From NCBI GenBank assembly GCA_945870025.1, contig CAMBQN010000008.1, positions 34,666 through 98,665 on the forward strand: 64,000 nt of DNA. The letters are read 5' to 3'. Shown one piece after another: positions 3,874 through 40,894 of this stretch. The notes under the pieces are model-generated. The model saw nothing but the letters and a program-made list of their open reading frames with translations. It made no database searches and was not told the DNA's origin. This DNA is from Akkermansia muciniphila (GTDB taxonomy: Bacteria; Verrucomicrobiota; Kiritimatiellia; RFP12; JAAYNR01). The number at the start of each line of letters is the position of its first letter. Positions within the stretch are counted from its first letter, which is position 1. The translations under genes were made by a program, and so were the position numbers.

Positions 3874-3885
3874 GAGATCCTTCCC

Positions 3886-7044: not shown

Positions 7045-7202
7045 TTCCTTTCGTCACGCATGTCTGGCACTGTCCAGTGTGCCTGAAAGATACAACAAAA
7101 AAGAGAGGCATTGTAGCACAGTCGCTCCGGGTTGCGTAGAGGTTTTTGTCCGACCCGGCGCGGCGGGGCGCCTCACCCTTCATGACGCCGAAAACTTTTC
7201 AG

Positions 7203-25280: not shown

Positions 25281-25308
25281 TTGCGTTGTAGGCAGCAGAA
25301 AGCCGGTC

Positions 25309-26502
25309 TTACCGGTAAACGCCGTACTCCAGACACGTCTCGTACACGGCCTCCAGGTTCGCCAACGGACAGCAGGGCGGCAGGTTGTTTCCTTCTTGGA
25401 GAATGAACCGGCCGCCTTCCATGACGCCGCTCTGGAGGATTTCTTTCGCTCGCGCCGCGCACGCCTCCGGCGTCCCGTAGCGCAGCAGCGCCACGTGCGG
25501 GCCGCCGGAAATCTCAACATCCGGGCCCAACTGCTTCCGAAGCAACCCGTGGTCCACCGGAAACCCCGTGTCGAACGACGTCACGCCCAGCTTCGCATGC
25601 ACCAGTGGCAGGAGCCGCATCACGTCGCCGCACAAATGGATGAAGCGATTGGCAGAAGCCGGCGTGGTCGTCGATATCTCGCTGTAGAAACGTTCGTGCA
25701 ACGGCAGAACCAGCTCCTCGTACATGGACGTGCTGATGAGTTGAATCGAATCGTCCGCCATTCCGCCCCAGGCTCCCTTTTCCCACTTGCCGCTGACGTT
25801 CGCCAGCGCCTGGTTGCGAGTCACCGCCGCGTCAACAATCGTCCGCATCATGGCAACAGCCTTTTCCGGTTCGCTCCCGAGAAGCACAAAGAAGTCTGCT
25901 CCCATCAGAACCGCGGCGATGGTCACGGGACCGTCAAACCATACGTTGAATGGTTGCACGTCCCCCTGGCGGCCCAGGTAGCTGAAGTCCCTGGCGGCCT
26001 TGATCAACTCTGTGCGAAAGGCGAGTTTCTCCCGAACCCACGGGTTCTCCAGCGGACGCGAGAAGTCCCGCTTGATGAACTCGTCCACGTCGCCTTCGCT
26101 CATACACGGCAGATTACTGGGAATCTGGTCCGCATCATAGACCACCGGGCATCCGAAGTAGGCGCCGTCGTACGTATTCAACGTATCCACGCAGAAGCTC
26201 CACCTGTCCGGCAGCTTGCCGGCTGAGTCGCACACGTTGCTCATGACTGTTGCGACGTATTCCTGATGCCGCGCCTGGGCCATCAGCGTAACGCGCGGAT
26301 CCTTGAAGTACTGCTCGAAGGTGTAGCCCTCCGGATTCAGCTCCGGATTGAGCAGCATGATCCGCGGATTCGTGTTCCATCGCAGCGGCACACGCGTCGG
26401 CCTCCGGTCCGCATACGACTTCCATACCGCGGCCTTCTCCGCGTCCGTGACGTTCCGAGACGCCCGATTGCTTGATTCCCGTGTCTTCGTCGCCATTGGC
26501 AT
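25309..26502 (-). CDS. URO-D-like family protein, paralog C, with an MtaA-type H-x-C-G zinc motif
   Basis: Length is 397 aa. It carries IHLCGD and a C-terminal PPCCP, consistent with Zn-dependent MtaA/CmuA-type methyltransferases. Confidence 0.65.
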   Translation of the reverse strand: MPMATKTRESSNRASRNVTDAEKAAVWKSYADRRPTRVPLRWNTNPRIMLLNPELNPEGYTFEQYFKDPRVTLMAQARHQEYVATVMSNVCDSAGKLPDRWSFCVDTLNTYDGAYFGCPVVYDADQIPSNLPCMSEGDVDEFIKRDFSRPLENPWVREKLAFRTELIKAARDFSYLGRQGDVQPFNVWFDGPVTIAAVLMGADFFVLLGSEPEKAVAMMRTIVDAAVTRNQALANVSGKWEKGAWGGMADDSIQLISTSMYEELVLPLHERFYSEISTTTPASANRFIHLCGDVMRLLPLVHAKLGVTSFDTGFPVDHGLLRKQLGPDVEISGGPHVALLRYGTPEACAARAKEILQSGVMEGGRFILQEGNNLPPCCPLANLEAVYETCLEYGVYR

Positions 26503-26517
26503 CCTCCCTAAAATAGC

Positions 26518-27750
26518 CTACCTTACCATCTTCCAGTACTTGCCCATCTCGACGACGCGCCCCGTCTCCATGGCTTCGTCGATCCCGAAGCAGGTGAATG
26601 CCGAAGCCAGTCCTTCATCGAGTCCAACCGCCGGCGCCACGCCCTTGAGCATGCTTTTGGAAAGTTCCCGCGCCAAGACATCGTCACCGCCGCCGTGGCT
26701 CCCTGACGCGCTGGCCTTCACCGTCCGGATCTTTTCGCCGAACCCGATGCGCGCCACCTCGATGGCACCGTCGGGAAAGCCGCGGATCGCCCCTTCGGTG
26801 CCAACGATATACATGCGGCGCTCGGGAATGGCGCTGTTGCAGTTGGTGTGGAACGTGGCCCGCACCCCGTTCTCGTACTCGATCAGAGCAACCTGGTTAT
26901 CGATGATGTCCTTGTCGGCCGTAAACGGATTTTTGCCAACCAGTCCGCCCCATGTGCGATAGGCATGCTTACCGTTCTTGTCGGCGCCCAGCCGCCGGAT
27001 GTGGCGCGCATTCTTCGGAACGAAGAAGTTCTGCCCACCGAACGAGGCAACCCGTGCGGCGCGCGACCCGACCATCCAGTTGGCCAGGTCAATGTCGTGG
27101 CAGCATTTCTCCAGCAAGTGTGTTCCCGCATACTGGGTGAGCCGACGCCAGTCGCCCATGATATAGCCACCATGGTTGAAATCGAGCGTCTCGTTGAACT
27201 CCATGCTGACTACATCGCCCACCGCACCATCCTCGATGAGCCGGCGGACCGCCCGGTAACGCGGCGAGTAGCGAAGACTGAACCCGATGTTGAACATGCA
27301 CCCGCTTCTCTTCCACGCCTTGCGCATGGCCACGCAGTCAGCGGCCAGGGTTGCCAGAGGCTTCTGACAGAAGACGTGTTTCCTCGCCTCGAATGCAGCA
27401 ATCACCTGCTCCTTGTGGAAGCAGTTCCACGAGGCGATCATGACCCAGTCAATGTCCGGCGACTCGCACAGTTTGTGGTAGTCCTTGAACACGACGGCCT
27501 GGGGCGCCAGCGAATTGAGCGTGGCCTCCACGGAACGCCGGTCAGGGTCAAACACCCCGCGGATCTCCAGACGCGGGTCCTGGGCCAGCACCTTCTGGGC
27601 AACCAGCCGCCCCATGCCGCCGGCCCCGATCAGCCCGATGCCGATCTTCGTCCCTGTAACTGCCGGCCCTTTTCTGAATGATACCGTACCCGTGACGCTG
27701 TCCGAGCCTTGATAGACCTGAGATTGTCTCATTTTCAACGCTTTCTCCAT
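26518..27750 (-). CDS. Gfo/Idh/MocA-family oxidoreductase
   Basis: The Rossmann segment is IGIGLIGAGGMGR, and EKPLATLAADCVAM is present. Confidence 0.75.
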   Translation of the reverse strand: MEKALKMRQSQVYQGSDSVTGTVSFRKGPAVTGTKIGIGLIGAGGMGRLVAQKVLAQDPRLEIRGVFDPDRRSVEATLNSLAPQAVVFKDYHKLCESPDIDWVMIASWNCFHKEQVIAAFEARKHVFCQKPLATLAADCVAMRKAWKRSGCMFNIGFSLRYSPRYRAVRRLIEDGAVGDVVSMEFNETLDFNHGGYIMGDWRRLTQYAGTHLLEKCCHDIDLANWMVGSRAARVASFGGQNFFVPKNARHIRRLGADKNGKHAYRTWGGLVGKNPFTADKDIIDNQVALIEYENGVRATFHTNCNSAIPERRMYIVGTEGAIRGFPDGAIEVARIGFGEKIRTVKASASGSHGGGDDVLARELSKSMLKGVAPAVGLDEGLASAFTCFGIDEAMETGRVVEMGKYWKMVR

Positions 27751-27781
27751 GTCACTTCAACGAACTGGAGGACGCTCCACC

Positions 27782-30700
27782 TTACTTTCGCACCTCCACC
27801 ACCGGCGCCGCCATCAGTCCGCAGGGCACCAACTGATACCCCTCGAACCAGGTATCGCCCCAGCGCGCGAAAGAGTCCGGACCGGTCCAGTGCGGCCACT
27901 TCTCCGTAAGATGAAAAGGCCCGTGCGAGTTGCGCCGGTGCCCGATGACTTCGATGGCCAGTTCGACCGGTGCGCCGCTGAGCAACGCCGTGATCTCCAC
28001 CTCGTTCGGCTCCCAGCCTACAATCCCGGCCGTCTGGCCGTTGACCAGCACGCGCACGGCCACGCCGCGATACTCCGGCACCCGGACAAACACCTTCTCG
28101 CCCGCCGTCGGCTTCACATCCAGCGTCCGCCGGTAGGCCACGGACCCGCTGTAGAACGCCAGCCCCTGTTCACACCAGTCGCCGATCTTGAGCGCGCTGG
28201 GAGCCGCCGTCATAGCGACGGCAGTTTCGCGCACCGCCGTGCCGAAGTGGCCGAGCAGATAGACGATCTCCAGCCCCGTGTGGGTTTCCGCATACTCGCA
28301 CTCCAGCACCAATTCATTGGCCCCGAGCTTCAGGCACGCCGTATCCAGCGGCAGCTTGCGCAGGGACCGATCCACCCACCAGCCGCTCTCAGCCGTATTG
28401 GAAACCGCCTGGCCATTGAGCGCGACGCGGAACGTCTGCGGCTCCTCCAGCGCCAGGAAGAGATCGCCGGACGGCAGCGCCTGACAATCGAATGTGTAGG
28501 CCAGCGTGACCGTCGTGGACTTCGGCGTTTTCGACTTCTCACGCGCCCAGGGCTGCACCATGCTGCCGCCGCGGTGTTGCACGCCCAGCGCATCGCGCAC
28601 GGCCTTATCCACACGCAGAATCTCGGTGTGGTCTTGCCACGGCTGCTTGCCGATGCGATAGCGCGGCCGATCGAGCACCAGGTTGGCGCATTCCGAAAGC
28701 GTGATGCGCCAGCTTTCGTCGTCCAGCGGTTCGCTGCGCACTACGCTCACTTGCGCAGGGCACGCCGCCACGGCGCTCTTCGCCGCCTTGGGAATCACGA
28801 AGATCCGGCTCCCCAGGGCCGGCAGGGAGGTCCGGATCTCCCAGCCGTCGCCGTTGCGAGCCGCCTGTGCGGCTACCATGCCGGCGTTCTCCGGATTTAA
28901 CTCCAGCGGCGTCCCCGCGCATCCCGCAAAGCCGCGGATACGCACATCGCCAAAGGCAAGCGTGCGTTCGCGCGCCAGCGCCTGCCCCATGAAATGACCA
29001 TTGGATTTGACATAATCGTCGCCGGTATTGCAGACAAAGAGGTAAAAGGCGTCCTTGTCCTCGCGCAGGAGATAGAGGGCCGGCGTGATCTCGCAACCAT
29101 CTGGGCCAGCAATAGACAGCCGTCGGGCCACAGCCACTGTGGCGCCAACCGCCGCACCGATCTCAGGCGTGTGCGGACAGGTCGCGGAGAAGGCCTTGAC
29201 CTCATCAGAGACCGCACCCTCGATCGCGCAGGCGATCTCGCCCACAAACGAGACGACGCCACCCGCGACCTTGAACTTCTTGAGTAGGCTCAGCGTGCTG
29301 CGACGCATGGTCTTCATCGGCGGCACGAGCACCGCCTTGTAACGGCCCTTGCCCACGCGCATCACAGGAGCGCCACCCACCTTGGCCACCGCGGCAAGCC
29401 GCGACATCACTTCCTCATCACCAAAGTCAAAGTCCAGATGTTCCGAGAGCAGGCGATCGGTCAACTTGTTGGGCAGATCATCAAACGCATGCATGTCGGA
29501 ATTGCCATGCCAGCCAGTCTTGACCATCATCCACATGCTCTCGACCGGATGAATCACCAACAGGTCACGTACTTCCTCCCCCTGCGTCATGACCGCATGG
29601 ATGCGGGCAAAGTAGTCTTCGACCTTCGGATAAAGCTCCCACCAGGGCGATTGATAGAAGATGGCGGCCGGGTAGTCGCGCTTGGCTTCTCCGGTCATGG
29701 TGTACCAGGCCAGGTGCTGACAGCGCAGATTAATCCCCATGGCCACCTGCCAGTCGCCCAGCGCCTTGTGTCCGGCAAACGGAAAATCCCAGCCGGTGCA
29801 GCCATAGGTCTCGGTAAGACGCCACTTGGCGCCAAACTGATGCGCCGCCGAGGTAACCTGCTTGGCGGTGTTGAAAACGCGCCAATGTTCCGTGAGCAGG
29901 TCCATGCCGGGTGCCTGCATGTACTCATAGGTCCGCATACAGCTTCCCACCATGTTCGTCTGCCGGAAGAGCGAATCTTCCTCAAGCTGATGCCCGGTAA
30001 AGAGCAGCTTGTTCTTCGCGCACCATTCGCCGATCTGGCGGCAGAAGGCGTCCACATAGAGATGCGTGACACAATCGTGGTAATGGTAGCGCGCCGGTGC
30101 AATGGTCTGGCCCTCGACGTCAAAAACCAACGCCATCAGATGCGGCACAAGGTCGTAGCCGTAGCGCTTCTTGAATGTAATGAGCAAACTCCCAGTCCAG
30201 GGCAACCCACCGGGATTTCCGGTGTTGTTGTCGTGGCCGAGCTTGTTACCGTGGTTAGGCTCGTCCGTGAACATGCCCGGGATGGTCTTGCCGAACTCCT
30301 TGCCGCAGCGTTTGCGATAGGCCTCGTGCGTAACCTTGATAAACTCCTTCACCGCCGCATGGCTGAGGGTGTCGAGATAGGTGTAGTCGTTATACCAACT
30401 GCTGCACGGCTGCAGCTCCACCACAAACGCCACCAGTTTCTCGCCCTCAGCCAGCACGGGCGGACGGGCATTGCGCGCAACCTGACGAACGTTGCGGGCC
30501 ACGGCACCGTCAATCCGCGCCACAAACGCCGCGAGCGTATCGGGCGTCCACTTGAACCCCTTGGCCGAGTCAGACATCTTGACCATGGCCGAACGCATCC
30601 GGTACTTCGGGTTCTTCGTCACCAACCCGCCCGCCGCGCCGGACGGCCAACGATCCTCGTCGTAGAGCCAGGCGCCCATGCCGAGCTTCTTGGCCTCGTC

Positions 30701-30919
30701 CACGCAGGCGTCCACGCACGCAAACCACTCCTTGGAAAGATAGGTCGTGTCGAGTCCGACGCGCGAGTGCATGAAAAAGCCGCCCAGCCCCATGCGGTGC
30801 ATGACCTGGATCTGGCGCCGCAGCTCCTGAGGATCCAGCTTGCCGTTCCACGCCCAGAACGGCGCGCCACGATATTCGTTGCCGGGGTTCTTGAATGCTT
30901 CGATCTGTTTACGGTTCAT
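27782..30919 (-). CDS. Large cytoplasmic glycoside hydrolase, GH106 (alpha-L-rhamnosidase)-like, paralog 1
   Basis: The protein is ~1045 aa and begins MNRKQIEAFKNPGNEYRGAPFWAWNG. It is a close paralog of 35449..38568. Family assignment is inferred. Confidence 0.55.
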   Translation of the reverse strand: MNRKQIEAFKNPGNEYRGAPFWAWNGKLDPQELRRQIQVMHRMGLGGFFMHSRVGLDTTYLSKEWFACVDACVDEAKKLGMGAWLYDEDRWPSGAAGGLVTKNPKYRMRSAMVKMSDSAKGFKWTPDTLAAFVARIDGAVARNVRQVARNARPPVLAEGEKLVAFVVELQPCSSWYNDYTYLDTLSHAAVKEFIKVTHEAYRKRCGKEFGKTIPGMFTDEPNHGNKLGHDNNTGNPGGLPWTGSLLITFKKRYGYDLVPHLMALVFDVEGQTIAPARYHYHDCVTHLYVDAFCRQIGEWCAKNKLLFTGHQLEEDSLFRQTNMVGSCMRTYEYMQAPGMDLLTEHWRVFNTAKQVTSAAHQFGAKWRLTETYGCTGWDFPFAGHKALGDWQVAMGINLRCQHLAWYTMTGEAKRDYPAAIFYQSPWWELYPKVEDYFARIHAVMTQGEEVRDLLVIHPVESMWMMVKTGWHGNSDMHAFDDLPNKLTDRLLSEHLDFDFGDEEVMSRLAAVAKVGGAPVMRVGKGRYKAVLVPPMKTMRRSTLSLLKKFKVAGGVVSFVGEIACAIEGAVSDEVKAFSATCPHTPEIGAAVGATVAVARRLSIAGPDGCEITPALYLLREDKDAFYLFVCNTGDDYVKSNGHFMGQALARERTLAFGDVRIRGFAGCAGTPLELNPENAGMVAAQAARNGDGWEIRTSLPALGSRIFVIPKAAKSAVAACPAQVSVVRSEPLDDESWRITLSECANLVLDRPRYRIGKQPWQDHTEILRVDKAVRDALGVQHRGGSMVQPWAREKSKTPKSTTVTLAYTFDCQALPSGDLFLALEEPQTFRVALNGQAVSNTAESGWWVDRSLRKLPLDTACLKLGANELVLECEYAETHTGLEIVYLLGHFGTAVRETAVAMTAAPSALKIGDWCEQGLAFYSGSVAYRRTLDVKPTAGEKVFVRVPEYRGVAVRVLVNGQTAGIVGWEPNEVEITALLSGAPVELAIEVIGHRRNSHGPFHLTEKWPHWTGPDSFARWGDTWFEGYQLVPCGLMAAPVVEVRK

Positions 30920-30950
30920 CGTGCTTCCTTTGTTGATTTCCGTTGAGTCA

Positions 30951-31000
30951 TCTCCCACTCACACGCACCCACACACCCACACACCCACACACTCACACAT
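30951..31000. repeat. CA-rich half-copy of the GT/CA repeat family (copy C)
   Basis: The sequence is tcccactcacacgcacccacacacccacacacccacacactcacacat. Confidence 0.45.
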
Positions 31001-31002
31001 GC

Positions 31003-32139
31003 TCACTGCTCTCCCCCACCTCCCGCGCCACAGCGTCGGCGAGGTCGAGCAGTATAGCATCTTCTTCCGCCTGCCTCTAGCGTCAGAAGTGCGCGGATGG
31101 CCGCGATTTCCCTGGCTGTGACGCCGATCGCGCGAAGATAGCCTTCGACCTGACCTTTGATATCATTCGCACGCTGTCCGAAGGGACGCAGCGCGGCCCG
31201 CAACGCCTTGAACTCCGCTGAGGCTTGCGACCGCGGCCCCCACACGGACAGGGACGTCAACTCGTAATCATGCACCAGGTCCGGCAGTTTCACGCCCAAC
31301 AGGCCGTGAATGAGAAACGCCACCGTTCCGCCCCTGTCCGCCCCACCCCAGCAATGGAAGAGAACCGGATAGCGGCTTTCCTGCGCCAGTAATGCGAATA
31401 CGCGCCGATACGCGTCGCGCCCGGCGTCATCCACAATGCCCCCATACGGATTGATTGGGATATTCACCCATTCGACCTTGGAAGCGTTCAGCACGGACTT
31501 GACCTCTTCCGGTGCGCGCCGCAAATCGAGGTCCGTCCGGATCTTCAGTTCATGCACGAGCAATCGCTCGCCCGCCTCGGTGATGGTGAGGTGGCTATTC
31601 ATCTCCGAGGAGCGGTAAAGCATGCCTTGCCGCACGCGGCGGTTTCCGCCGGGTAGCGACCAGCCCCCCATGTCGCGCACATTGGTGATCTCCGGCACCC
31701 AGATCCAGCGCGGTGGAGCGTCATGCGTCACGAAGGAGCGAACGGCCGATTCGACCCCCCTGCCGTCCGCGTCCCGCGCCATTACCTTCCAGTAATAGCG
31801 GGTGCCGATGTGCAGATGGAACACCTCGCATTGCCCGCCGATTACGCCTCGGACGACGAGCGCATCCTGAAAATCGCGGTTTTGTGAGATCAGCAGATCA
31901 CACGCGCCCGTCCCGCGTTCGACCGTCCAGACAAAACGTACGGGCGAGGGGCGGCTCTTATCGTTATCTATCGAGACAACCCCATTCCGGTCGACCGGCC
32001 GCCACCAATCCGTCTTGTCGGAAGGCCGGACATGCTGCTGGCGTTTGTCGGCATGCGCAACCAGATGGTATTTCTGCATCGGCCTCGTCACCACCCCGCT
32101 ACGTGGCTCGATCAGCCGTATCGTGTTCCTGCTGTTCAT
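31003..32139 (-). CDS. CX5R protein-tyrosine/dual-specificity phosphatase-fold enzyme (Y_phosphatase3-like) with an N-terminal FN3-like domain
   Basis: The P-loop HCWGGADRGG matches C-x2-G-x-D-R-x-G. The start overlaps the GH36 stop by 4 nt. Confidence 0.6.
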   Translation of the reverse strand: MNSRNTIRLIEPRSGVVTRPMQKYHLVAHADKRQQHVRPSDKTDWWRPVDRNGVVSIDNDKSRPSPVRFVWTVERGTGACDLLISQNRDFQDALVVRGVIGGQCEVFHLHIGTRYYWKVMARDADGRGVESAVRSFVTHDAPPRWIWVPEITNVRDMGGWSLPGGNRRVRQGMLYRSSEMNSHLTITEAGERLLVHELKIRTDLDLRRAPEEVKSVLNASKVEWVNIPINPYGGIVDDAGRDAYRRVFALLAQESRYPVLFHCWGGADRGGTVAFLIHGLLGVKLPDLVHDYELTSLSVWGPRSQASAEFKALRAALRPFGQRANDIKGQVEGYLRAIGVTAREIAAIRALLTLEAGGRRCYTARPRRRCGAGGGGEQ

Positions 32140-34199
32140 ATCACATTTTTGTCCCCATGTGGCCGGATCACAAACACCGAAGCGCGCCGATGCACAATCC
32201 CGAACTGGGGCGCGGAGAACCCATCACGCAGGAGACTCGCGCCATCGACGGACACGGTCTTCTTCTCGCCGCCAAATCCGATCTCTACCGCATACTGCCT
32301 CGTGGCGTCGAGACCAACCGGACAGAGCGACGGCGGTGCCCCGGCATTTCCAAGCCGGTAGGCAAAGACCAGGGTGGCATCCTCTCCGGGACTCTGGAGT
32401 TGGAACCCGACCCAGCCATCGCGCTGCTCGATCGGCGCGGGCGGCGTCAGCAGGTGGCCAGCCGAGCGGGCAATAAAGCCGCGCCACGGTTTGTAGAACG
32501 CGACTGCCTCGGCGACCCGTCTCAGTTGTTCCGGCGTCAGGCCAGCCAGGTCGCCGCCGAGCCCCATCATGCTAGCCATCCCGTCCACCAGGGAAAGATC
32601 CAGATCCGCCCGCTCCATATCCCACCAACCCGCGCCGCAGGGCACCAGCAGCATAGGCGGGGCGTTTTCCACGGAAGTGCCATATCCCGGCACAATGTGC
32701 GAGGCGGAACGGAGCACACACCAGATCGTGATCCGGCCGGGCGGCAGCCGCAACCACGCGCCCTGCAGAAGCCGGAGCATATCGGTCGGATTCGACGTGT
32801 CACTCAGGAAATGCCCATCAAAATGACAGAGGGTCTCCAGGTCGCCGCGCAAGGCGCCACTGGAACACCCCTCGAAGAAGGTGGCCGGGTAGGCCGCGCG
32901 AATCTCGTCGAGCAGGCCGTACCAGGCGCCTGTGTAGTCGGCCAGCTCCCCGCCCGAGGCGTCGGGATCGAGCCTGAAATTGAAATCCACCTTCATCCAA
33001 GCCAGGCGATACGTTTCCACCAGCCGCCCGATCTCGCCGCGCAACCAGGCGCGGGCCGCCGGCAGCGTCAAATCCAGACGGGCTGAGTCCCCGACCGGGA
33101 TAAACCACTCCGGATGCTCGCCGCGAATCGGCGCCCTTGGCCCATACTTCTCCGGTTCCATCCAAAGTCCAAAACCGAGCCCCGCGGCGCGTACCTCGTC
33201 CGCAAACTCGCTCATGCGGCCAAAAAAAGCGCCATTGTGCTTCTCGCGCCAGTCGCCGGTCTGTTCGCCCCAGCCGCCCTCGCTGGCGCCATACCAGCCG
33301 GCATCGACCACAAATATTTCGCACCCCGCCTCCTTGGCGGCGGCGAGCTGCCGCCGCAGGCGCGGCACTTCGAGCACCTCATGCTGATCAAACCACGAGT
33401 TATAGACGAACGGCGCTTCCGGTTTCGCATTGCGCAGTCGGCCCGCCACCAGGTACCGGTGCAGCGCTGGCGCGGCCAGATGGACCTCGCCCTGCGGCAA
33501 GGACTGAAACAGGATCTCCGGCAACGCCATGGACTCGCCGGGCTTCAGCGTGCGGCTCAGGTTTTCGTCGGCCAGCCCCAGTTCCACCACCGTATAGGGC
33601 ACGTTTGGGTACACCCGGATCGTCCAGTTGCCGCACGGCAGGACGTGGCAGGCCAGGCCTTGGCCGCCGTCCACAGCGCGCAGGCCCAGATAGGGGGTGA
33701 ATCCTTCCGTGGGGCGGCCGGAGATATGGCTCAGGCGCAGACCGGCGTGCAGCGGATGCCACGCCCCCTGATTCTCGCGACACCAACTGCTGGCCTGGGT
33801 GTAGCACTCGTAGCTGACCGATGACAGCGCGAACCGCGCCAGGCAGCGCGAGAGCACCACTGGTTTGGTGCCCGTGTTGCACAGGGTGTCCCGCCGGCTG
33901 ACCACCCCGGTCGATGGATCACCCTGCCAGGCTGTCGTCAGGCGCAGTCCCGTCTGGCCGACCTTCCATTCGCAGCGCACGACAGCAGGCGACTCCTCAA
34001 CCTTGTCGAGCACGAGTTGCCCGGCCTCAAAGGGCTGCCCGTCCACCTTCAGCAGCGCCACACCTTGCGCGAACCCCTGGTCGCTCTCCTCGCCCTGCCG
34101 CCCCAGCAACATCCCGCACAGGCGCACCAACCAGAATCGGTTGTCGCCACGGGCGTAAACGGTTCCGGTAATCAAGTCATTCATTTGTGTCGTACTCAT
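32136..34199 (-). CDS. GH36 alpha-galactosidase
   Basis: Motifs AWMKVDFNFRL and GLWMEPE are present. Length is 687 aa. Confidence 0.7.
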   Translation of the reverse strand: MSTTQMNDLITGTVYARGDNRFWLVRLCGMLLGRQGEESDQGFAQGVALLKVDGQPFEAGQLVLDKVEESPAVVRCEWKVGQTGLRLTTAWQGDPSTGVVSRRDTLCNTGTKPVVLSRCLARFALSSVSYECYTQASSWCRENQGAWHPLHAGLRLSHISGRPTEGFTPYLGLRAVDGGQGLACHVLPCGNWTIRVYPNVPYTVVELGLADENLSRTLKPGESMALPEILFQSLPQGEVHLAAPALHRYLVAGRLRNAKPEAPFVYNSWFDQHEVLEVPRLRRQLAAAKEAGCEIFVVDAGWYGASEGGWGEQTGDWREKHNGAFFGRMSEFADEVRAAGLGFGLWMEPEKYGPRAPIRGEHPEWFIPVGDSARLDLTLPAARAWLRGEIGRLVETYRLAWMKVDFNFRLDPDASGGELADYTGAWYGLLDEIRAAYPATFFEGCSSGALRGDLETLCHFDGHFLSDTSNPTDMLRLLQGAWLRLPPGRITIWCVLRSASHIVPGYGTSVENAPPMLLVPCGAGWWDMERADLDLSLVDGMASMMGLGGDLAGLTPEQLRRVAEAVAFYKPWRGFIARSAGHLLTPPAPIEQRDGWVGFQLQSPGEDATLVFAYRLGNAGAPPSLCPVGLDATRQYAVEIGFGGEKKTVSVDGASLLRDGFSAPQFGIVHRRASVFVIRPHGDKNVI

Positions 34200-34320
34200 C
34201 GTGTCAGTTCCTCCAAAGTGGCGGGAGCATCCTGCTCCCGCGTCGCCTTCAATAGCATCTTGCCCGTTACACAGGGGAGCTGGAAGCTCCCCCCACTATG
34301 TTGTTTTGTGCGCTACTCCA

Positions 34321-35394
34321 TCAGTTGTACATGACAGATCGCGCCTCGGCGATGATGCGACGAACAGGCAATCCGTTCGGGCAGCGGGACTCGCACTTGC
34401 CGCACTCGCGGCAGAGATCCAGGCGCAACCCTTCCTCCCACTGCTTCTCCTTGAACGCCGCCTTCGCGCTCTCCATGCCCAGATACTTGAAGGCGTTGTA
34501 GTACGAGAGCGCTGCTCCCACCGTAATACGTTCGGGACACGGCGAGCAATAGCCGCAGGCGGTGCAGCGTTTCTCGTCGGTTTCCATCATGGAGCGAATC
34601 TTCGCGAGGATCTCCCCGGCGGACGGCTTGTACGTCGGCATGGTGTCCTGAATCCATTTGGCGTACTGGACTTCTTCTACGGAACTGAAGCCGATCAGGG
34701 GGTGCACGCCCTCCAGCCGCATCAGGTAGCGCAAGGCCAGCTCCTTGAGATCATCGCGCGATGCCAGGAAGCCGCCGGCCAGCGGATTCATGGCAATGAC
34801 CTTAATCCCTTGCGCGTTGCAGAAATCCACCACCGGCAGGCGCATCGTGTTGATGACGTTCAAGGGCAAGGTGACAGTTTCGAACTTGCCGGACTTCAGA
34901 AACCGGATGATGGTCTCGGAATCGGCGTGCGTCGTAATGCCCAGATGAGACCATTGCGTCTTTTTCGACAGGACGCCCTCACACCACCCGCCCGGCCGCA
35001 TGGCCTCGGCGAACTGCTCGTCGGTGTGGGTGGTCCACAGATGGTAGTAGTCCACGCCGGACAAGTTGAGCCGGCGCAGCGACTGATCGAACACCTGACG
35101 CAATTGAGCCGCTGTCCGCACGCCGAAACCGCCAGCGGGGTCGAATTCGCCGAGGCCGAAGCCGCCATCCCCGGGTGCACATTTGGTCGACACCATCACG
35201 CGGGAACGGTAGTTCGGCTCCGATAACGCCTCACCGACCCAGCTTTCCGAATTCTCCGTTTCGCTTGCCCGGCAATAGCAGGGGGACGTGTCGATGTAGT
35301 TGAACCCGGCGTCGATAGCCGCCCGCAAAGTCTGTACACCCGACTTCCGATCCTTCAGGCGCATGCCGCCGACCACGATCTTGCTCATCTCCAT
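34321..35394 (-). CDS. Aldo/keto reductase fused to a C-terminal 2x[4Fe-4S] ferredoxin-like domain
   Basis: An AKR TIM barrel is followed by CTACGYCSPCPE and CRECGKCESRCPNG. The start is placed at MEMSKIVVGG because ggaga lies 8 nt upstream. Confidence 0.65.
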   Translation of the reverse strand: MEMSKIVVGGMRLKDRKSGVQTLRAAIDAGFNYIDTSPCYCRASETENSESWVGEALSEPNYRSRVMVSTKCAPGDGGFGLGEFDPAGGFGVRTAAQLRQVFDQSLRRLNLSGVDYYHLWTTHTDEQFAEAMRPGGWCEGVLSKKTQWSHLGITTHADSETIIRFLKSGKFETVTLPLNVINTMRLPVVDFCNAQGIKVIAMNPLAGGFLASRDDLKELALRYLMRLEGVHPLIGFSSVEEVQYAKWIQDTMPTYKPSAGEILAKIRSMMETDEKRCTACGYCSPCPERITVGAALSYYNAFKYLGMESAKAAFKEKQWEEGLRLDLCRECGKCESRCPNGLPVRRIIAEARSVMYN

Positions 35395-35448
35395 ATATTT
35401 TTCTCCGCTAATCGAAACGCGCAAGTGTACCCCTGCCGCGCCGGCACA

Positions 35449-38400
35449 TCAATGCCGCACTTCCACCACTGGCGGTGCCATCAGGCCGCACGGCACCAAC
35501 TGATATCCCTCAAACCACCGATCCGCGCCACACGTGTACTCGCCCGGTCCCGTCCATTCGGGCCACTTCTCGGTAATATGAAAGGGACCATGCGAGTTGC
35601 GACGGTGACCAATCACTTCGATCGCCAGCTCGACCGGGGCACCGGTAAGCCACGACGTGACTTCCACCTCGTTCGGCTCCCAGCCGATGATCCCCGCCGC
35701 CTGCCCATTGACCAACACACGCACCGCCACGCCGCGGTAGTCCGGCACACGCACGAACACCCTCTCGCCAGCCGTCGGTTTCAGATCCAGCGTGCGCCGG
35801 TAGGCCACTGACCCACTATAGAAAGCCAACCCTTGCTCGCACCAGTCACCGACCTTCAAGGCCTTCGGCATCGCGGTCATCGACACCACCGTGTCGGCCA
35901 CCTTCGTCCCGAAATGGCCCAGCAGGTAAACGATCTCCAGCCCCGGATGGGTCTCGGCATAGTCGCACTCCAGCACGATTTCATTCGTGCCAAGTTTCAG
36001 GAAGGCGCTGTTCACCGGCAACTTGCGCAGCGAGCAGTCCACCCACCAGCCACACTCCGCCGTCGCGGTGATCGCGTGGCCGTTGAGCGCCACTCGGAAC
36101 GTCTGCGGCTCCTCCAACGCCAGATAGAGATCGCCCGACGGAATGGCGTGGCAATCGAACACATACACCAACGTGACCTTGGTGGTTTTCGGGTGCTGCG
36201 GCTTCTGCCGTGCCCACGGCTGCACCATGCTGCCGCCGCGGCGCGGAATGCCCAGCGCGTCGCGTACCGCGTGATCCACCCGAAGGATCTCGGCGGCAGG
36301 TTGCCAGGGCTGCGGGCCGATCCGGTAGCGCGGTCGGTCCAGCACCAGGTTGGCGCATTCCGACAGCGTGATCTTCCAGTCGGCATCGGCCAGCGGCACC
36401 ACGCGAACCACGTCGGTCGCTGCCGGGCGAGTTACCAGAACTCCGTCCTTCGCAGGCTGCTTGGGCACGACAAACAGCCGACTCCCCAACTCCGGCAACG
36501 ACGTGCGAATCTCCCAGCCGGCGCCCGCGCGCACCGCCACGGCCGTGGCGATTGAACCGTCATCCGGATTCAACTCCAGCGGCACCCCCTCACACCCGGT
36601 GAATCCGCGGATGCGCACATCGCCAAAAGCCAGCTTGCGCTCGCACACCGGCGGCTGGTGCTGCATGCCGCAAGTGGCATGCACAAAATCCTCGCCGGTA
36701 TTGCAGACAAAGAGATAGAAGGCCTCTTTGTCCTCACGCAGTAAATAGAGCGCCGGCCCGATTTCGCAACCGTCGGGGCCGACGATGGATAGACGGCGCG
36801 CCACCGCCACCGGCGCAATCATGGCCGGACCGATCTCCGGCGTATGAGGGCAGGTGGCAGCAAAGGTCTTCACGTCGTCGCAAAGCGCCCCCTCGATGGC
36901 GGAGGCAATCTCTCCCACAAACGTCACGACACCGCCCGCCGCCTTGAACTTCTTGAGAAGCTCCAGCGTGCTGCGCCGCAGGGTCTTCTGTGGCGGCACT
37001 AGCACAGCCTTGTAGCCGGCCTTGCCCACGCGCAGCACCGGCGCACCTTGCCCACGCACAACCCGGGCGTGGCGCGACATCAGCTCCTCGTCACCAAAAT
37101 CGAAATCCAGATGCGCGGCCAGCAGCGCGCAGGTCATCCGGTTGAAGCTCTCGTTCAGCTCCTTCACCACCGGATCGGACTGCCAACCCGTCTTAACCAG
37201 CGTCCACATGCTCTCGACCGGGTGAACCACCAGCAGGTCGCGCACCTCCTCGCCCTGCGTCATCACGGCATGTATGCGCGCGAAGTAGTCTTCCACCTTC
37301 GTATACACCTGCCACCAGGGCGACTGGTAGAAGATGCCGGCCGGGTAGTCGCGCTTGGCCTCGCCCGACATCGTGTACCAGGCGAGATGCTGACAACGGA
37401 GATTGATGCCCAGCGCCGCCTGCCAATCGCCGAGGGCCTTGTGCCCGGCGAACGGGAAGTCCCAGCCGGTGCAGCCGTAGGTCTCGGTCAGGCGCCATTT
37501 CGCACCGAACTGATGCGCGGCGGAGGAGACCTGCTTGGCGGTGTTGAAGACCCGCCAGTGCTCGGTGAGCACATCCATGCCCGGCGCCTGCATGTATTCG
37601 TAGGTGCGCATGCTGCTGCCGACGTAGGTGGTCTGCATGCACAGGTCGTCCTCGTGATGGTGCCCGGTGAACAACATGCCATGCTTCCGGCACCACTCGC
37701 CAATCGGACGACAGAACGACTCCACGTAAAGGTACGTGAGGCACTCGTTGTAGTGGTAACGCGCCGGGGTCATCCCCTCGCCATCCACATCATAGACAAG
37801 CTCCATGAGATGCGGCAGCAAGTCGTAGCCATAGCGCTTCCGGAACACAGCGGGGAAGCGCCCCGTCCACGGCAGGTTATGCCACCCCATGCGATAGCCG
37901 TGGTTCGGCTCGTCCGTGAAGATCCCCGGAATGGTCTTACCGAACTCCCCGCCACAGCGCTTGCGATACGCTTCGTGCGTGATCTGGATGAACGCAGCCA
38001 CGGCCTCCGGATTGAGCGTGTCGAGGTAGGTGAACCCGTTGTACCCGTCGTTGCACCCCTGTATCTCCACCTCAAAGACGACCAGCTTCTCCCCCTCGGC
38101 AAGCCTGGGCGGCCGAGAACCGCGCGGCACCGGACGCACGTCACGGGCCACCGCGCCATCGATGCGCGCCACAAAGGCGGCCAGCACATCCGGTGTCCAC
38201 TTGAATCCCGCGGCGGTGTCGCGCACCCGGGCCCGGAGGTCACGCATGCGGTATTTCGGATTCTTCGTCACCAACCCGCCGGCCGGACCCGACGGCCAAC
38301 GGTCCTCGTCGTAGAGCCAGGCGTTCATCTTCAGCTTCTTCGCCTCGTCCACGCAGGCATTCACGCAATCGAACCATTCTTTCGACAGGTACGGCGTGTC

Positions 38401-38568
38401 GAGCCCCACGCGCGAGTGCATAAAGAAGCCGCCCAGCCCCATGCGGTGCATGACGCGGACCTGCCGGCGCAGCTCCTCCGGAGCCAGCTTGCCGTTCCAC
38501 GCCCAGAACGGCGCGCCACGAAAGTCGTTGCCGGGGTTCTGGAAGGTTTTAATCTGCCTGCGATTCAT
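35449..38568 (-). CDS. Large cytoplasmic glycoside hydrolase, GH106-like, paralog 2
   Basis: The protein is ~1040 aa and begins MNRRQIKTFQNPGNDFRGAPFWAWNG. The start overlaps the stop of the upstream URO-D-like gene. Confidence 0.55.
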   Translation of the reverse strand: MNRRQIKTFQNPGNDFRGAPFWAWNGKLAPEELRRQVRVMHRMGLGGFFMHSRVGLDTPYLSKEWFDCVNACVDEAKKLKMNAWLYDEDRWPSGPAGGLVTKNPKYRMRDLRARVRDTAAGFKWTPDVLAAFVARIDGAVARDVRPVPRGSRPPRLAEGEKLVVFEVEIQGCNDGYNGFTYLDTLNPEAVAAFIQITHEAYRKRCGGEFGKTIPGIFTDEPNHGYRMGWHNLPWTGRFPAVFRKRYGYDLLPHLMELVYDVDGEGMTPARYHYNECLTYLYVESFCRPIGEWCRKHGMLFTGHHHEDDLCMQTTYVGSSMRTYEYMQAPGMDVLTEHWRVFNTAKQVSSAAHQFGAKWRLTETYGCTGWDFPFAGHKALGDWQAALGINLRCQHLAWYTMSGEAKRDYPAGIFYQSPWWQVYTKVEDYFARIHAVMTQGEEVRDLLVVHPVESMWTLVKTGWQSDPVVKELNESFNRMTCALLAAHLDFDFGDEELMSRHARVVRGQGAPVLRVGKAGYKAVLVPPQKTLRRSTLELLKKFKAAGGVVTFVGEIASAIEGALCDDVKTFAATCPHTPEIGPAMIAPVAVARRLSIVGPDGCEIGPALYLLREDKEAFYLFVCNTGEDFVHATCGMQHQPPVCERKLAFGDVRIRGFTGCEGVPLELNPDDGSIATAVAVRAGAGWEIRTSLPELGSRLFVVPKQPAKDGVLVTRPAATDVVRVVPLADADWKITLSECANLVLDRPRYRIGPQPWQPAAEILRVDHAVRDALGIPRRGGSMVQPWARQKPQHPKTTKVTLVYVFDCHAIPSGDLYLALEEPQTFRVALNGHAITATAECGWWVDCSLRKLPVNSAFLKLGTNEIVLECDYAETHPGLEIVYLLGHFGTKVADTVVSMTAMPKALKVGDWCEQGLAFYSGSVAYRRTLDLKPTAGERVFVRVPDYRGVAVRVLVNGQAAGIIGWEPNEVEVTSWLTGAPVELAIEVIGHRRNSHGPFHITEKWPEWTGPGEYTCGADRWFEGYQLVPCGLMAPPVVEVRH

Positions 38569-39623
38569 GCGCGCTTCCCGTACTTCCACGCTTCGTCGTA
38601 CATCGCGATGATGTTCTCCACAGGCGAGACGACCTGCAGATTGTGGCAGGGCGCCAGGATATAGCCGGTGCCATCGCTGGCCAGCGCGTCGATGCAGTGC
38701 CGCACTTCGGCACGGACCTCTTCCGGCGTGCCGAACGGCAGGATGCGCTGGTTCTCGATCGCGCCATGGAAACAGATCTTCCTCCCGAACTCGGCCTTCA
38801 ACTCCTTCATGTCCATGCCGGGGCAGGTCCACTGGATCGGATTCAGTATATCGATCCCCATCTCCATCAGCAGCGGCAGGAACGGCCGGCAGCTACCGTC
38901 GTCGTGATGGAAGACCTTGACGCCGAACTCGTGACAAAGGTCTATGAAGCGCTTGTGATGCGGCGCATAGAACTCCTTGTAGAGCTCCATGCTGATCAGG
39001 GGACCGGTCTGGCTGCCGAGATCGTCCGTGACCTGAGCGACGTCAATGAGCCCCTCGCAGGACTCAAACATCCGGCGGTGCTGCGCATAAAAGAAGTCCG
39101 CGATGCGCCCCACAAGATAGTGCGTGAACTCCGGATCCAGCAGCGGGTCAATCAGCGACTGCTCAAGGCCCCGGAGCAGGTTATGAAAATAGAAGGGCGC
39201 CATGTAACCGCATTGCACGGCATGGGTCTTGCGCGCCTCCACCGCATACGCACGCATTCCGGAATAGTCGAACCACTCGGCCTTCGGCCAGGCATATTTC
39301 TTCAGGTCATCGATGGTTTCCGCAGCGGCCAGCGGATAGAAACACTGCTCATCGTAAGCGCCGCCCTCGTGCGGCACACGCCGGTTGCGGACGCCCCAAA
39401 AGTCCACGGACTCGCCTGCAGCTACCGGCGGCAGTGCTGGACCGATGTAGGCAGCACCAGTCCATCCGAAGCCGTCGATGTGCAACTCCTTGTTGATGTC
39501 GACGCCTTCGCCGAAATGATTACGGAGTTTCGCCCACACCTCTCCGGTCGCCCAGATATCCGTGGGGATCCGATCCACCGGTTGATGATTGATAGCGGCC
39601 AGCATTCGTTCTCTTGCATTCAT
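38565..39623 (-). CDS. URO-D-like family protein, paralog B
   Basis: Length is 352 aa. It has a URO-D/MtaA-like fold (FHHDDGSC, YILAPCHN) and is translationally coupled to GH106-like paralog 2. Confidence 0.65.
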   Translation of the reverse strand: MNARERMLAAINHQPVDRIPTDIWATGEVWAKLRNHFGEGVDINKELHIDGFGWTGAAYIGPALPPVAAGESVDFWGVRNRRVPHEGGAYDEQCFYPLAAAETIDDLKKYAWPKAEWFDYSGMRAYAVEARKTHAVQCGYMAPFYFHNLLRGLEQSLIDPLLDPEFTHYLVGRIADFFYAQHRRMFESCEGLIDVAQVTDDLGSQTGPLISMELYKEFYAPHHKRFIDLCHEFGVKVFHHDDGSCRPFLPLLMEMGIDILNPIQWTCPGMDMKELKAEFGRKICFHGAIENQRILPFGTPEEVRAEVRHCIDALASDGTGYILAPCHNLQVVSPVENIIAMYDEAWKYGKRA

Positions 39624-39634
39624 AGTTGCCTTTC

Positions 39635-40894
39635 CTACCGCGCACCTTCGGGATGCCCTGTAATTTCGCGCACGATCCGACAGGCTTCATCCAGACGGTT
39701 CTGCATGGCGCCGGTCAGGAGATTGGTGTCGCGGAAAACGAACTCGATGAAGAAGTCGGCCCCGATGTCGAGCGTCTCCTGCAAGTGCGCCCGGAATTCG
39801 GCCGGATCAAACGCGGTCCCGCACAGCTTGAGCGGCACGGGCTTGCGCGACCAGATCACGTTCCGATTGCACGCAGCCGCGAGTTTCTCCAAGTCGCACC
39901 ATGGGGTCACGCTGACCTTGCGCAGGCCGTTCAACTCCTGCAAATGCCCGATGATGGCGTGCACCGGCTCGCAGCAACCGAACTTCATCAGCTTGAACTT
40001 CGCCGCAAGCTTCCGGAAATGCGGCATCAGGAACTCCGCGAACATGTCCGGCGAGATGCTCGACGCCTCCTGCGCCTCCAGGTAGCCATAACGGTCGGTG
40101 GAGCGAACGGGTTCGCCGGGTGCGATGACCCGGCCGGGAATTTCGTCGCTAAACTGCGAACTGCCGGAGCAGTAGCCCTGGTTGCCGTCGTTGTTGAGCG
40201 TGAGCAACCCCTGATCCTCCTGCCATTGCCCCAGTGCGAGGTTCTCCTCGACCAGGAACGAAAACAGGCGATGTACGGCCTCGGGATTGATGGCCATCTG
40301 CAGATAGAGTTCCTCCATCCCCATCAGGTGAACAGCCTTGTTGGTAAAGCCGTCGGAATACCCGGAGTGCACAGACCCAACCTCCACGGGGAGCAGCCCC
40401 TTGAAGACATCCCGGGCCAGTTCTGCACGCTGCTCGGTCAGTTCGCGCTGCAGAACTTTCCGGCGATGCTTGAGCTTATGGAAGTCAGCATCGATGTCCT
40501 TGATCGGCTTGCTGGTCTCGTAGCCGAAACTCCCGCCATGGCCGTCATCCGCGTGCGTATAGCGCAGCTCGTCGCAGTAGCCGGTGACATCCGCCGCCCA
40601 GTCCACGACAAACCGGTCCGGAATGATCCGGTCATCGTTGATGCGCTCGTAAGCGGTCATGGCAAACAGCAGTTGCCACTCCAGCCAGTGGCAATCGGCA
40701 TCCGCACACTGCAACGGCGGCATCACATCGCGGAAGAAGGTGCCGTTGTCCTCGATATGGAAAGGGAAAGTCCGTGCTTTCAGCCCGTTGTTCAAGCGCC
40801 ATTTCATCCGGCGCTGCGCCATGACATCGTTCAACGCATACGCCGCATACGTGCCTGCTAGGCGCCTCAGTCGCAACATAGATGCATCTGTCAT
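39635..40894 (-). CDS. URO-D-like family protein, paralog A (divergent)
   Basis: Length is 419 aa. It sits 11 nt upstream of paralog B. A URO-D-like C-terminal region (KFGCCEPVH) is present. Confidence 0.5.
   Translation of the reverse strand: MTDASMLRLRRLAGTYAAYALNDVMAQRRMKWRLNNGLKARTFPFHIEDNGTFFRDVMPPLQCADADCHWLEWQLLFAMTAYERINDDRIIPDRFVVDWAADVTGYCDELRYTHADDGHGGSFGYETSKPIKDIDADFHKLKHRRKVLQRELTEQRAELARDVFKGLLPVEVGSVHSGYSDGFTNKAVHLMGMEELYLQMAINPEAVHRLFSFLVEENLALGQWQEDQGLLTLNNDGNQGYCSGSSQFSDEIPGRVIAPGEPVRSTDRYGYLEAQEASSISPDMFAEFLMPHFRKLAAKFKLMKFGCCEPVHAIIGHLQELNGLRKVSVTPWCDLEKLAAACNRNVIWSRKPVPLKLCGTAFDPAEFRAHLQETLDIGADFFIEFVFRDTNLLTGAMQNRLDEACRIVREITGHPEGAR

Follow-up and report, generated by a model that had tools for sequence, protein, structure and literature searches.

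The stretch of DNA analysed here (the window, 64 kb) encodes four URO-D-fold proteins, paralogs A to D, all on the minus strand and at most 27% identical to one another. The initial annotation had recognised four divergent URO-D-like genes at these positions among sugar-degrading genes, and both the genes and their setting hold up on closer analysis. B, C and D belong to a 12-gene co-directional array, running from a GH116 gene to B and made up mostly of glycosidases that lack signal peptides; A heads a second co-directional run (A, GH51-like, GH29, GH63-like, GH3). The features are as follows.

45654..48545, minus strand: GH116 (PF04685, 162 bits; PF12215, 113 bits), opening the array
43545..45614, minus strand: HEAT-repeat / alpha-beta-hydrolase esterase, AXE1-like (PF05448, PF00326, PF13646)
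40891..43548, minus strand: CBM9 / peptidase-C25-like protein with a lipoprotein-like N-terminus (PF06452, PF01364), translationally coupled to D
39635..40894, minus strand: URO-D-fold paralog D, 419 aa, from a cysteine-rich family that has no Pfam model
38565..39623, minus strand: URO-D-fold paralog C, 352 aa
35449..38568, minus strand: GH106-like hydrolase a (GH106a), 1039 aa when read from the ATG within the overlap (partial match to PF17132, 64.6 bits)
34321..35424, minus strand: aldo/keto reductase with a fused 4Fe-4S dicluster domain, AKR-FeS (PF00248 with PF13534/PF13183/PF13187)
32136..34199, minus strand: GH36 alpha-galactosidase-like protein (PF02065, 101 bits)
31003..32139, minus strand: Y_phosphatase3-type (CX5R) phosphatase (PF13350, 117 bits), overlapping the GH36 stop by 4 nt
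27782..30958, minus strand: GH106-like hydrolase b (GH106b; PF17132, 60.4 bits)
26518..27750, minus strand: Gfo/Idh/MocA oxidoreductase (PF01408, PF22725, PF02894), 15 nt upstream of B
25309..26502, minus strand: URO-D-fold paralog B, 397 aa, closing the array
25303..25315, minus strand: terminator-like hairpin at the B stop codon (consensus match only)
9034..10203, minus strand: URO-D-fold paralog A, 389 aa with the ATG at 10203 taken as start (the longest ORF extends to 10314)
1879..8936, minus strand: GH51-like protein (signal peptide), GH29 fucosidase, GH63/MGH1-like protein and GH3, downstream of A

The junctions first reported around C are exact: its stop overlaps the start of GH106a by 4 nt (ATGA), and D lies 11 nt upstream; the start of D in turn overlaps the CBM9/peptidase-C25-like gene by 4 nt. 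The hairpin at the B stop codon likely marks the end of the array. Inspection of N-termini revealed no signal peptide in A to D or in most of the neighbouring glycoside hydrolases, including GH106a, which is 74% identical to GH106b. The host is an uncultured organism that looks anaerobic, encoding a glycyl radical enzyme as well as the Fe-S aldo/keto reductase.

Assignment to the URO-D fold by Pfam profile, as originally proposed, stands for A, B and C (35.4, 62.1 and 86.7 bits on PF01208, gathering threshold 23.9 bits) and not for D (14.2 bits). D is placed in the fold despite this failure, by profile-profile comparison of its family with that of A (95.5% probability; the C family matches A at 99.9%) and by a confident AlphaFold (AF2) model (pLDDT 89), whose top 23 Foldseek matches are all UroD or MtaA. 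A confident structure model was likewise obtained for A, and the architecture is the UroD-type (beta/alpha)8 barrel. Given the genomic context, membership in glycoside hydrolase clan GH-A was also considered and rejected, since similarity beyond a generic TIM barrel with catalytic Glu residues on strands 4 and 7 was not found.

None of the four is HemE, as the initial annotation had anticipated. On the HemE equivalog model (TIGR01464, cut-off 302.95 bits) C reaches 16.9 bits (E 0.0025) and A, B and D give no match; identity to characterised HemE/UroD proteins (PDB 1URO, 1J93, 4EXQ) is 10-14%. HemE relies on Arg37, Arg41, Asp86, Tyr164 and His339 (human numbering) for catalysis and substrate binding. 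In profile searches only the C-terminal His aligns, with D-H of A matching G-H-G of UroD, and the N-terminal half finds no alignment to PDB UroD sequences. A hemE gene is expected as a single copy per genome, whereas four paralogs occur here within 64 kb, and no haem- or tetrapyrrole-pathway domains were found among the window ORFs scanned, the annotated related loci or the neighbour tallies. Canonical MtaA/CmuA identity (MT II type) is rejected on similar grounds: against cut-offs of 235.4 bits (TIGR01463) and 244 bits (PRK06252), B scores 53 and 54.7, C 64.6 and 55.2, A 11 and 13, and D 14 bits. Paralogs A to D thus represent four separate, anciently diverged families. All four fall within a large branch of the UroD/MtaA (URO-D) superfamily that is uncharacterised, and they are neither haem enzymes nor known B12-linked methyltransferases. 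The usual default annotation, corrinoid methyltransferase, comes here without the expected partners.

The zinc site of MtaA/CmuA comprises H-x-C and a distal Cys, and none of the four families keeps that set throughout. Of the four, B comes closest to MtaA (H289-L-C291-G). The zinc motif it was first said to retain is borne out in part: HLCG is invariant in all 46 family members compared, while the distal C377 occurs in only 32 of them. Elsewhere the motif is replaced, by HHDDG and CH in C, by DxDG and DH in A, and by GCCE and C333 in D. Invariant residues of the C family are D17 R18, D200 D201, H239 H240 D241 G243 and C326 H327; those of the D family are C107, C242, C307 C308 E309, C333, C342, C358 and C405. 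The conserved polar residues sit where successive predicted beta strands reach their C-terminal ends, or just past that point, presumably the positions that hold the zinc ligands in MtaA. The barrel's C-terminal face would then be the site of catalysis, and there each family may present its own set (DxDG, E and DH in A; HHD and CH in C; CCE and C in D; HxC and usually a further C in B). At these predicted sites the most probable role of the Asp, His and Cys residues is to bind a divalent metal or to serve as acid/base groups.

Five sequence families with conserved candidate active-site residues can be delimited: A, B, C, D and a further one, c3. Members of families A to D span Kiritimatiellia, Lentisphaerae, Planctomycetota, Latescibacterota, Armatimonadota and other phyla, and the branch shows expansion in anaerobic bacteria that degrade glycans. 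B has 754 homologs, C has 4479 (the best-scoring 120 all at least 74% identical) and D has 470, which are called "hypothetical protein" wherever the source gives a name. Within families, identities of about 60-85% across phyla would be compatible with strong constraint as well as with horizontal transfer.

The coupling of C to GH106a is probably a local and recent arrangement rather than a conserved two-enzyme unit, because two close relatives (L016 and L068) hold most of the same genes in shuffled order, and in L068 C and GH106a are missing between D and the AKR-FeS gene. D is 85-99% identical in the shuffled relatives, GH106b is 89% identical in L068, and the AKR-FeS orthologs, 93-95% identical, lie upstream of GH36 in both. 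Across about 160 related loci no glycoside hydrolase family recurs as a partner. The proposed conservation of a neighbourhood with GH106 and GH29 does not survive this comparison, neither family being listed among 189 neighbours (66 from the same strand at D orthologs, the other 123 from the surroundings of A orthologs); among the families listed there, GH38 alone has more than one member, namely two.

What does recur is other URO-D-fold genes, which account for 21 of 292 genes (7.2%) one or two positions away and for 11 of 435 (2.5%) at greater distance (odds ratio 3.0, p=0.005). Also recurrent nearby are AraC/LacI regulators, sugar ABC transporters of the CUT1 type, sulfatases and Gfo/Idh/MocA oxidoreductases. 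Of 52 loci with A orthologs, 8 have an AraC regulator next to that gene; ABC permeases, sulfatases and Gfo/Idh/MocA genes also occur among the neighbours. One locus (L091) reads GH2, two permeases, AraC, URO-D, AraC, A, c3, AraC and a sugar-sensor kinase; in another (L161) LacI and an ABC transporter adjoin a URO-D gene, c3, a C ortholog and a second URO-D gene, with an FGGY kinase nearby. D lies between GH101 and GH20, followed by GH172, in L006, with overlapping junctions on both of its sides, and a B ortholog overlaps a GH129/CBM4_9 gene in L158. Because such regulators, transporters, sulfatases and oxidoreductases recur, and because family members overlap varied glycoside hydrolase genes, the link to carbohydrate catabolism suggested at the outset is plausible. 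The association is qualitative, in genomes dense in CAZymes.

The reading we tentatively prefer, at somewhat short of an even chance, is that A to D are uncharacterised URO-D families with an accessory enzymatic role, taking imported glycan fragments or sugar derivatives as substrates, with no corrinoid partner. They would be single-domain TIM-barrel proteins of the cytoplasm, needing no corrinoid protein of their own and working alongside exo-glycosidases that themselves lack signal peptides. The reaction could be a C-O or C-C cleavage that removes or converts a non-glycosidic feature of the sugar, for example an ether, a ketal or a carboxyl group. Each family may take different substrates, which would explain both the clustering of paralogs and the changing glycosidase neighbours. 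Thousands of URO-D-fold proteins are automatically annotated as "uroporphyrinogen decarboxylase" or "hypothetical protein"; should they turn out to have an accessory role in glycan catabolism, these names would be wrong on a large scale, and a new class of enzymes would await assay.

An alternative that we consider unlikely is that A to D have nothing to do with carbohydrates and are housekeeping or other small-molecule enzymes (for example of sulfur, selenium or methyl metabolism or of tetrapyrrole-related chemistry), their adjacency to glycoside hydrolases reflecting only the density of CAZyme genes, which fill long co-directional arrays in these genomes. Glycoside hydrolases make up 30% of the annotated genes of the window, and 10 of 26 other genes have one as a neighbour. 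Partners are not conserved, gene order is shuffled even among relatives with 85-99% identical D proteins, and many orthologs are monocistronic beside housekeeping genes (an EF-Tu/ribosomal cluster in L001, cytochrome oxidase in L004, enolase and SHMT in L009). The very high conservation of the best-scoring C relatives (74-94% identity across several phyla) also resembles that of core metabolism. Against this stand the recurrence of AraC/LacI regulators, CUT1 transporters, sulfatases and a sugar kinase in unrelated genomes, and translational coupling to four different glycoside hydrolase families in unrelated genomes; the phyla involved are, moreover, largely glycan degraders.

It is less likely still that A to D are corrinoid-dependent, ether-cleaving MT I enzymes in the manner of OdmB, VdmB, MtvB and MtoB, and that they demethylate sugars released by the neighbouring glycosidases, handing the methyl group to a corrinoid protein whose gene lies at another place in the genome. 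Prior knowledge favours methyl transfer, because nearly all characterised non-HemE members of the superfamily are corrinoid-dependent methyltransferases, O-demethylases included (PMC10418091, PMC13222342). B and C give the best scores on the MtaA/CmuA models, and HxCG is invariant in the B family. Loss of the zinc triad is no disqualification, since the MT I protein CdmB and a Moorella O-demethylase work without zinc (PMC13222342). The tandem paralogs also resemble MT I arrays: OdmB, VdmB, MtvB, MtoB and CdmB are, like A to D, UroD-superfamily TIM barrels that occur as multiple paralogs, which are substrate-specific and in some cases zinc-free (PMC13222342). The one characterised sugar O-demethylase found in the literature, acting on 6-O-methyl-D-galactose, is an O2-dependent cytochrome P450 (PMC6292453), a route that would be unavailable to a host that looks anaerobic.

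The company these genes keep weighs against corrinoid chemistry. Known corrinoid methyltransferase systems usually have the corrinoid protein, MT II and activase co-localised within a few genes (PMC10418091, PMC13222342). The initial annotation had noted the lack of a corrinoid-binding protein in the cluster, and indeed no corrinoid protein, RACE activase or MT II was found among the window ORFs scanned, in the available Pfam annotations of about 160 related loci, or among the top families of the 189 neighbours. A scan for the cobalamin motif DxHxxG...SxL...GG in the window and 157 related loci (1.67 Mb) gave a single, spurious-looking match; it covers the His-on motif at these loci, so that corrinoid proteins of other types, or encoded at a distance, would escape it. 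No methyl sink pathway was seen. Alkyl methyl ethers are far poorer substrates than aryl methyl ethers for Co(I) chemistry, and the known MT I substrates are aryl methyl ethers and halomethanes, not sugars. From the methylcobamide:CoM methyltransferases MtaA/MtbA and the MtaA/CmuA subfamily (TIGR01463; PDB 4AY7) A to D differ in that even B and C reach only 53-65 bits against a 235-bit cut-off, the His/Cys ligands are replaced in A, C and D and the third Cys of B is not family-conserved, no corrinoid protein or activase is near, and the hosts are bacterial glycan degraders rather than methanogens. The Mlp proteins of type 1 mlp clusters are likewise non-methanogen MtaA homologs of uncertain function, with several paralogs in each cluster; those clusters combine at least two Mlps with a corrinoid protein as well as a Ram/RACE activase and are associated with sulfur/selenium metabolism (PMC10418091), whereas the loci of A to D have none of these partners and carry sugar uptake and degradation genes instead. 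The corrinoid O-demethylase idea put forward originally is weakly supported.

A broader version, which we regard as improbable, is that these families carry out the anaerobic removal of methyl-ether or other non-glycosidic, non-ester sugar decorations, each family with its own target, either with a corrinoid supplied in trans or by corrinoid-independent, metal-assisted chemistry. The literature search found no description of how anaerobes handle decorations that resist glycosidases, esterases and sulfatases (methyl ethers, ketals), and no paper on an anaerobic route for sugar O-demethylation. If O-demethylation is correct, the P450, encoded in polysaccharide-utilisation loci, would be a functional analogue: it removes a methyl ether whose presence keeps the sugar from being catabolised further, with an unrelated fold and an O2-dependent mechanism (PMC6292453). 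Were decoration removal confirmed, it would define a new class of carbohydrate-active accessory enzymes on the UroD/MtaA barrel, including D and c3, families that current domain libraries do not recognise.

We find it quite doubtful that A to D are, as was also proposed at the outset, cofactor-independent decarboxylases, UroD-like ones whose substrates would be carboxylated sugar derivatives (uronic or keto-sugar acids, for instance) that the neighbouring oxidoreductases produce. In UroD the pyrrole ring acts as the electron sink for decarboxylation, and sugars offer nothing comparable unless first oxidised; the Gfo/Idh/MocA neighbour is missing for B orthologs in five loci (L009, L011, L013, L158 and L160), and the sites of B, C and D, rich in Cys and His, resemble metal sites. 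Very improbable, finally, is that at least B and the Cys-rich D are cobalamin-independent zinc-thiolate alkyl transferases that, like MetE or epoxyalkane:CoM transferase, pass a methyl or alkyl group straight on to a thiol acceptor, a chemistry that needs no corrinoid partner and would be in keeping with the invariant HxCG of B, with C307 C308 E309 and C333 of D just after successive predicted strands, and with MetE-type structures as the next-best structural matches behind UroD and MtaA.

The four paralogs, A to D, were assigned to the URO-D fold in the initial annotation:

9034-10203, minus strand: paralog A
25309-26502, minus strand: paralog B
38565-39623, minus strand: paralog C
39635-40894, minus strand: paralog D

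The Pfam URO-D model bears this out for A (35.4 bits), B (62.1 bits) and C (86.7 bits); D fails it (14.2 bits, E 0.022) and owes its placement to profile-profile and structural comparison. The D family profile matches a diverse A-family profile with 95.5% probability (E 1.6e-8), and the AlphaFold model of D (pLDDT 89, pTM 0.88) finds only UroD or MtaA among its 23 best matches in the PDB. Judged from profile and predicted structure, D belongs to the URO-D fold despite the Pfam failure. When the D profile was compared directly with those of C and B, neither match was significant, so that D is linked to the others by way of the A family and of structure. Sequence searches of the PDB with B, C and D, as single sequences and as family profiles, returned nothing useful, and UroD was reached in such searches only by the diverse A-family profile (E about 1e-3).

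Two known identities were rejected. The equivalog model for HemE, the heme-pathway decarboxylase, gives C 16.9 bits against a cut-off of 303 bits and does not match A, B or D; the subfamily model for the corrinoid-linked methyltransferases MtaA and CmuA gives B and C 53-65 bits against a cut-off of 235 bits. No tetrapyrrole-pathway domain was found in the window ORFs scanned.

A to D are thus four divergent URO-D-fold proteins, representing four conserved families, that are neither HemE nor canonical MtaA. Homologs of C number 4479 at E<=1e-5 (the best-scoring 120 all at least 74% identical) and those of B 754 (the best 120 at 53-94% identity), while A has relatives in 2649 representatives of 50%-identity clusters (E<=1e-3) and more than 565 in metagenome contigs. 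The 470 homologs of D (65-98% identity) are called “hypothetical protein” wherever the source gives a name. MAGs with D orthologs are labeled Kiritimatiellia, Victivallales/Lentisphaerae, Planctomycetota, Verrucomicrobiota, Latescibacterota, Armatimonadota, Chloroflexota, Spirochaetota and Gemmatimonadota, none of the carriers found being a cultured strain; one Kiritimatiellia MAG holds a partial copy of D at 99% identity, a hint at where the window comes from. Plasmid records yielded only distant homologs, in Subdoligranulum, a Chloroflexota bacterium and Gemmatirosa, mostly unannotated and in one case named “hypothetical protein.” Between phyla (PVC groups, Latescibacterota, Armatimonadota, Chloroflexota, Spirochaetota and Gemmatimonadota; related loci L015-L157), orthologs of A, C and D are about 60-85% identical, a level that fits either horizontal spread between anaerobes that degrade glycans or constraint of unusual strength.

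Each family has its own set of conserved residues. In B, H289-L-C291-G is invariant, but only 32 of 46 members have the distal Cys; in C, the invariant residues are D17 R18, D200 D201, H239 H240 D241 G243 and C326 H327. The A family has no conserved Cys, its near-invariant residues being E239 D240, D285 x D287 G288, E309, K334 and D366 H367, and in the D family nine Cys are invariant, among them C333 and the pair C307 C308, next to which E309 is invariant too. Conserved residues in the A and D models lie at or just past the C-terminal ends of successive predicted beta strands. Profile alignment of A to C brings the motifs [E/D]D, [D/H]xDG, Px[E/Q] and [D/C]H into register. The D/C-H motif aligns with G-H-G of UroD. 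Residues 236-268 of D form a loop with the invariant motif DGNQGYCSGSS, an insertion relative to the A family and the sole low-confidence part of the model (pLDDT <50 at residues 242-245); from the model, it could be a mobile lid bearing a catalytic or metal-binding Cys.

Three of the paralogs lie in a co-directional minus-strand array of 12 genes running from 48545 to 25309 in a window of about 60-69% G+C. It begins with GH116 and continues with an AXE1-like/HEAT esterase, then a CBM9/peptidase-C25-like lipoprotein, D, C, GH106a, AKR-FeS, GH36, a Y_phosphatase3 phosphatase, GH106b, Gfo/Idh/MocA and finally B. Three of its genes are placed as follows:

35449-38568, minus strand: GH106a
34321-35424, minus strand: AKR-FeS, an aldo/keto reductase fused to a C-terminal 4Fe-4S dicluster domain
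27782-30958, minus strand: GH106b

The spacing between genes varies from -4 to 121 nt and includes four ATGA overlaps; at the stop codon of B there is a terminator-like hairpin. The junctions first described are exact: an ATGA is common to the C stop and the GH106a start, and 11 nt separate D from C. A heads a second co-directional run, followed by GH51-like, GH29, GH63-like and GH3 genes. Inspection of N-termini found no signal peptide in A to D, GH106a, GH106b, GH36, GH116, GH29, GH3 or GH94, and one only in the GH51-like and CBM9/C25 proteins; the array enzymes are therefore mostly cytoplasmic, and on this predicted localization would act on oligosaccharides after import.

The initial annotation had staked its reading beforehand on a conserved GH neighborhood, which largely failed to appear across 45 D loci and the B and C orthologs. 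When genes were called in the 45 genome loci and the 66 same-strand neighbors within two genes of D were tallied, URO-D alone among Pfam families occurred more than twice (six members); GH38, MarC, Gfo/Idh/MocA and MGS had two each. Orthologs of B and C are frequently single-gene units whose surroundings are unrelated. Two loci from close relatives, L016 and L068, contain most of the array genes in changed order: GH116, esterase, ..., D, x, C, CBM9/C25, AKR-FeS, ..., GH36, GH106 in L016, and D, AKR-FeS, GH36, ..., GH106b in L068, which has neither C nor GH106a. Their AKR-FeS orthologs are 93-95% identical to that of the window and likewise lie upstream of GH36. GH106a and GH106b are paralogs (74% identity) about 4.5 kb apart; given this paralogy and the reshuffling, the C-GH106a pair does not form a conserved unit and appears to have arisen locally and recently. 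The position of AKR-FeS directly after D in L068, with the identity of the two GH106 proteins, points to a recently duplicated or inserted C-GH106a cassette. A conserved C-GH106 or D-C-GH106 module was rejected on L016, L068 and the 45 other D loci; the GH106 link holds only locally.

Association with carbohydrate genes recurs in looser form. Across 52 loci with A orthologs, an AraC regulator lies within two genes in 8, recurrently just upstream of A and divergently transcribed, and sulfatases (4), ABC permeases (4), Gfo/Idh/MocA (3) and Pfam-recognized URO-D genes (4) also recur. Locus L091 reads GH2, two permeases, AraC, URO-D, AraC, A, c3, AraC, sugar-sensor kinase; L161 reads URO-D, c3, C ortholog, URO-D, with divergent LacI and ABC transporter genes and an FGGY kinase near. 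Elsewhere D sits between GH101 and GH20, with GH172 following and overlapping junctions on both sides of D (L006), and B overlaps a GH129/CBM4_9 gene (L158). The sole association with statistical support is that URO-D-fold paralogs cluster with each other: among genes at positions ±1-2 relative to A or D orthologs, 21 of 292 encode such paralogs, and at greater distances within these loci 11 of 435 do (odds ratio 3.0, Fisher p=0.005). One hemE is expected per genome, and the 2.5% background further out is far higher.

The c3 proteins flank A orthologs in seven loci and in L161 adjoin a C ortholog between URO-D genes. They have about 360 residues, no Pfam match and clear URO-D-like motifs (SNDFSCMISPxMF, YHLDGP, IQWxxGAG), and probably form, on these motifs, a second URO-D-fold family, besides D, missed by domain libraries. 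Examples are:

L091, 9130-10206, minus strand: c3
L161, 5795-6901, plus strand: c3
L142, 11864-12970, plus strand: c3

A to D represent uncharacterized clades within a known superfamily; their active-site residues are altered, and their context is unusual in being sugar-linked and without partners. Such clades are acknowledged in the literature (PMC13222342); we found none tying them to glycan catabolism, and nothing relevant on URO-D-like proteins in polysaccharide loci. Our tentative reading is that A to D may be enzymes that work on their own, probably with the help of a metal, on imported sugar derivatives, where they would convert or remove a non-glycosidic feature, each family with its own substrate. 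The lead is worthwhile for enzyme discovery, its specific mechanistic claims being hypothetical.

It is unlikely, but worth weighing, that their role has nothing to do with carbohydrates and that adjacency arose by chance in a CAZyme-dense genome, GHs making up 30% of annotated window genes. Distinctly unlikely is a corrinoid-dependent sugar O-demethylase. Corrinoid-system partners are normally co-localized (PMC10418091, PMC13222342), and here they are completely missing: the window ORFs scanned contain no B12-binding domain, in agreement with the initial annotation, and no RACE or pterin-binding methyltransferase domain; none of the six frames of the window has the classical cobalamin-binding fingerprint; pre-annotated contexts and neighbor tallies of related loci include no corrinoid protein; and a motif scan of 1.67 Mb gave one, apparently spurious, match. 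No co-localized corrinoid machinery was thus found. The demethylase is nevertheless kept viable because characterized superfamily members are mostly corrinoid methyltransferases, because some MT I enzymes work without zinc (PMC13222342) and because a literature search on anaerobic sugar O-demethylation found nothing relevant, the route described for methylated sugars being the aerobic P450 one (PMC6292453). UroD-like decarboxylation of sugar acids seems improbable, and MetE-like thiol alkylation, conceivable for B and D, more improbable still.

The window has several other features of note. Directly upstream of A is a lone AbiEii-like toxin gene (10407-11204, minus strand), likewise found upstream of A in a 96% identical relative (L078); a complete AbiEi/AbiEii pair lies elsewhere (55079-57273, plus strand). 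A PFL-like glycyl radical enzyme (PF02901 and PF01228; 14085-16400, plus strand), flanked by GH94 and a GH141-like beta-helix protein, points to an anaerobic lifestyle; its ORF overlaps the next (15806-19252), and the predicted starts are provisional. Beside B on the opposite strand (20207-25147, plus strand) are two xylose-isomerase-like TIM-barrel (AP_endonuc_2) genes, Zn-ADH, Gfo/Idh/MocA and an AraC regulator, a set that we take to resemble inositol-type or oxidative (3-keto) glycoside-cleavage pathways. Finally, a pair of long proteins (576 and 759 residues; 54023-55753 and 57334-59613, minus strand) combine N-terminal ECF-type sigma-70 regions 2 and 4 with large C-terminal extensions, which in one of them include TPR repeats.
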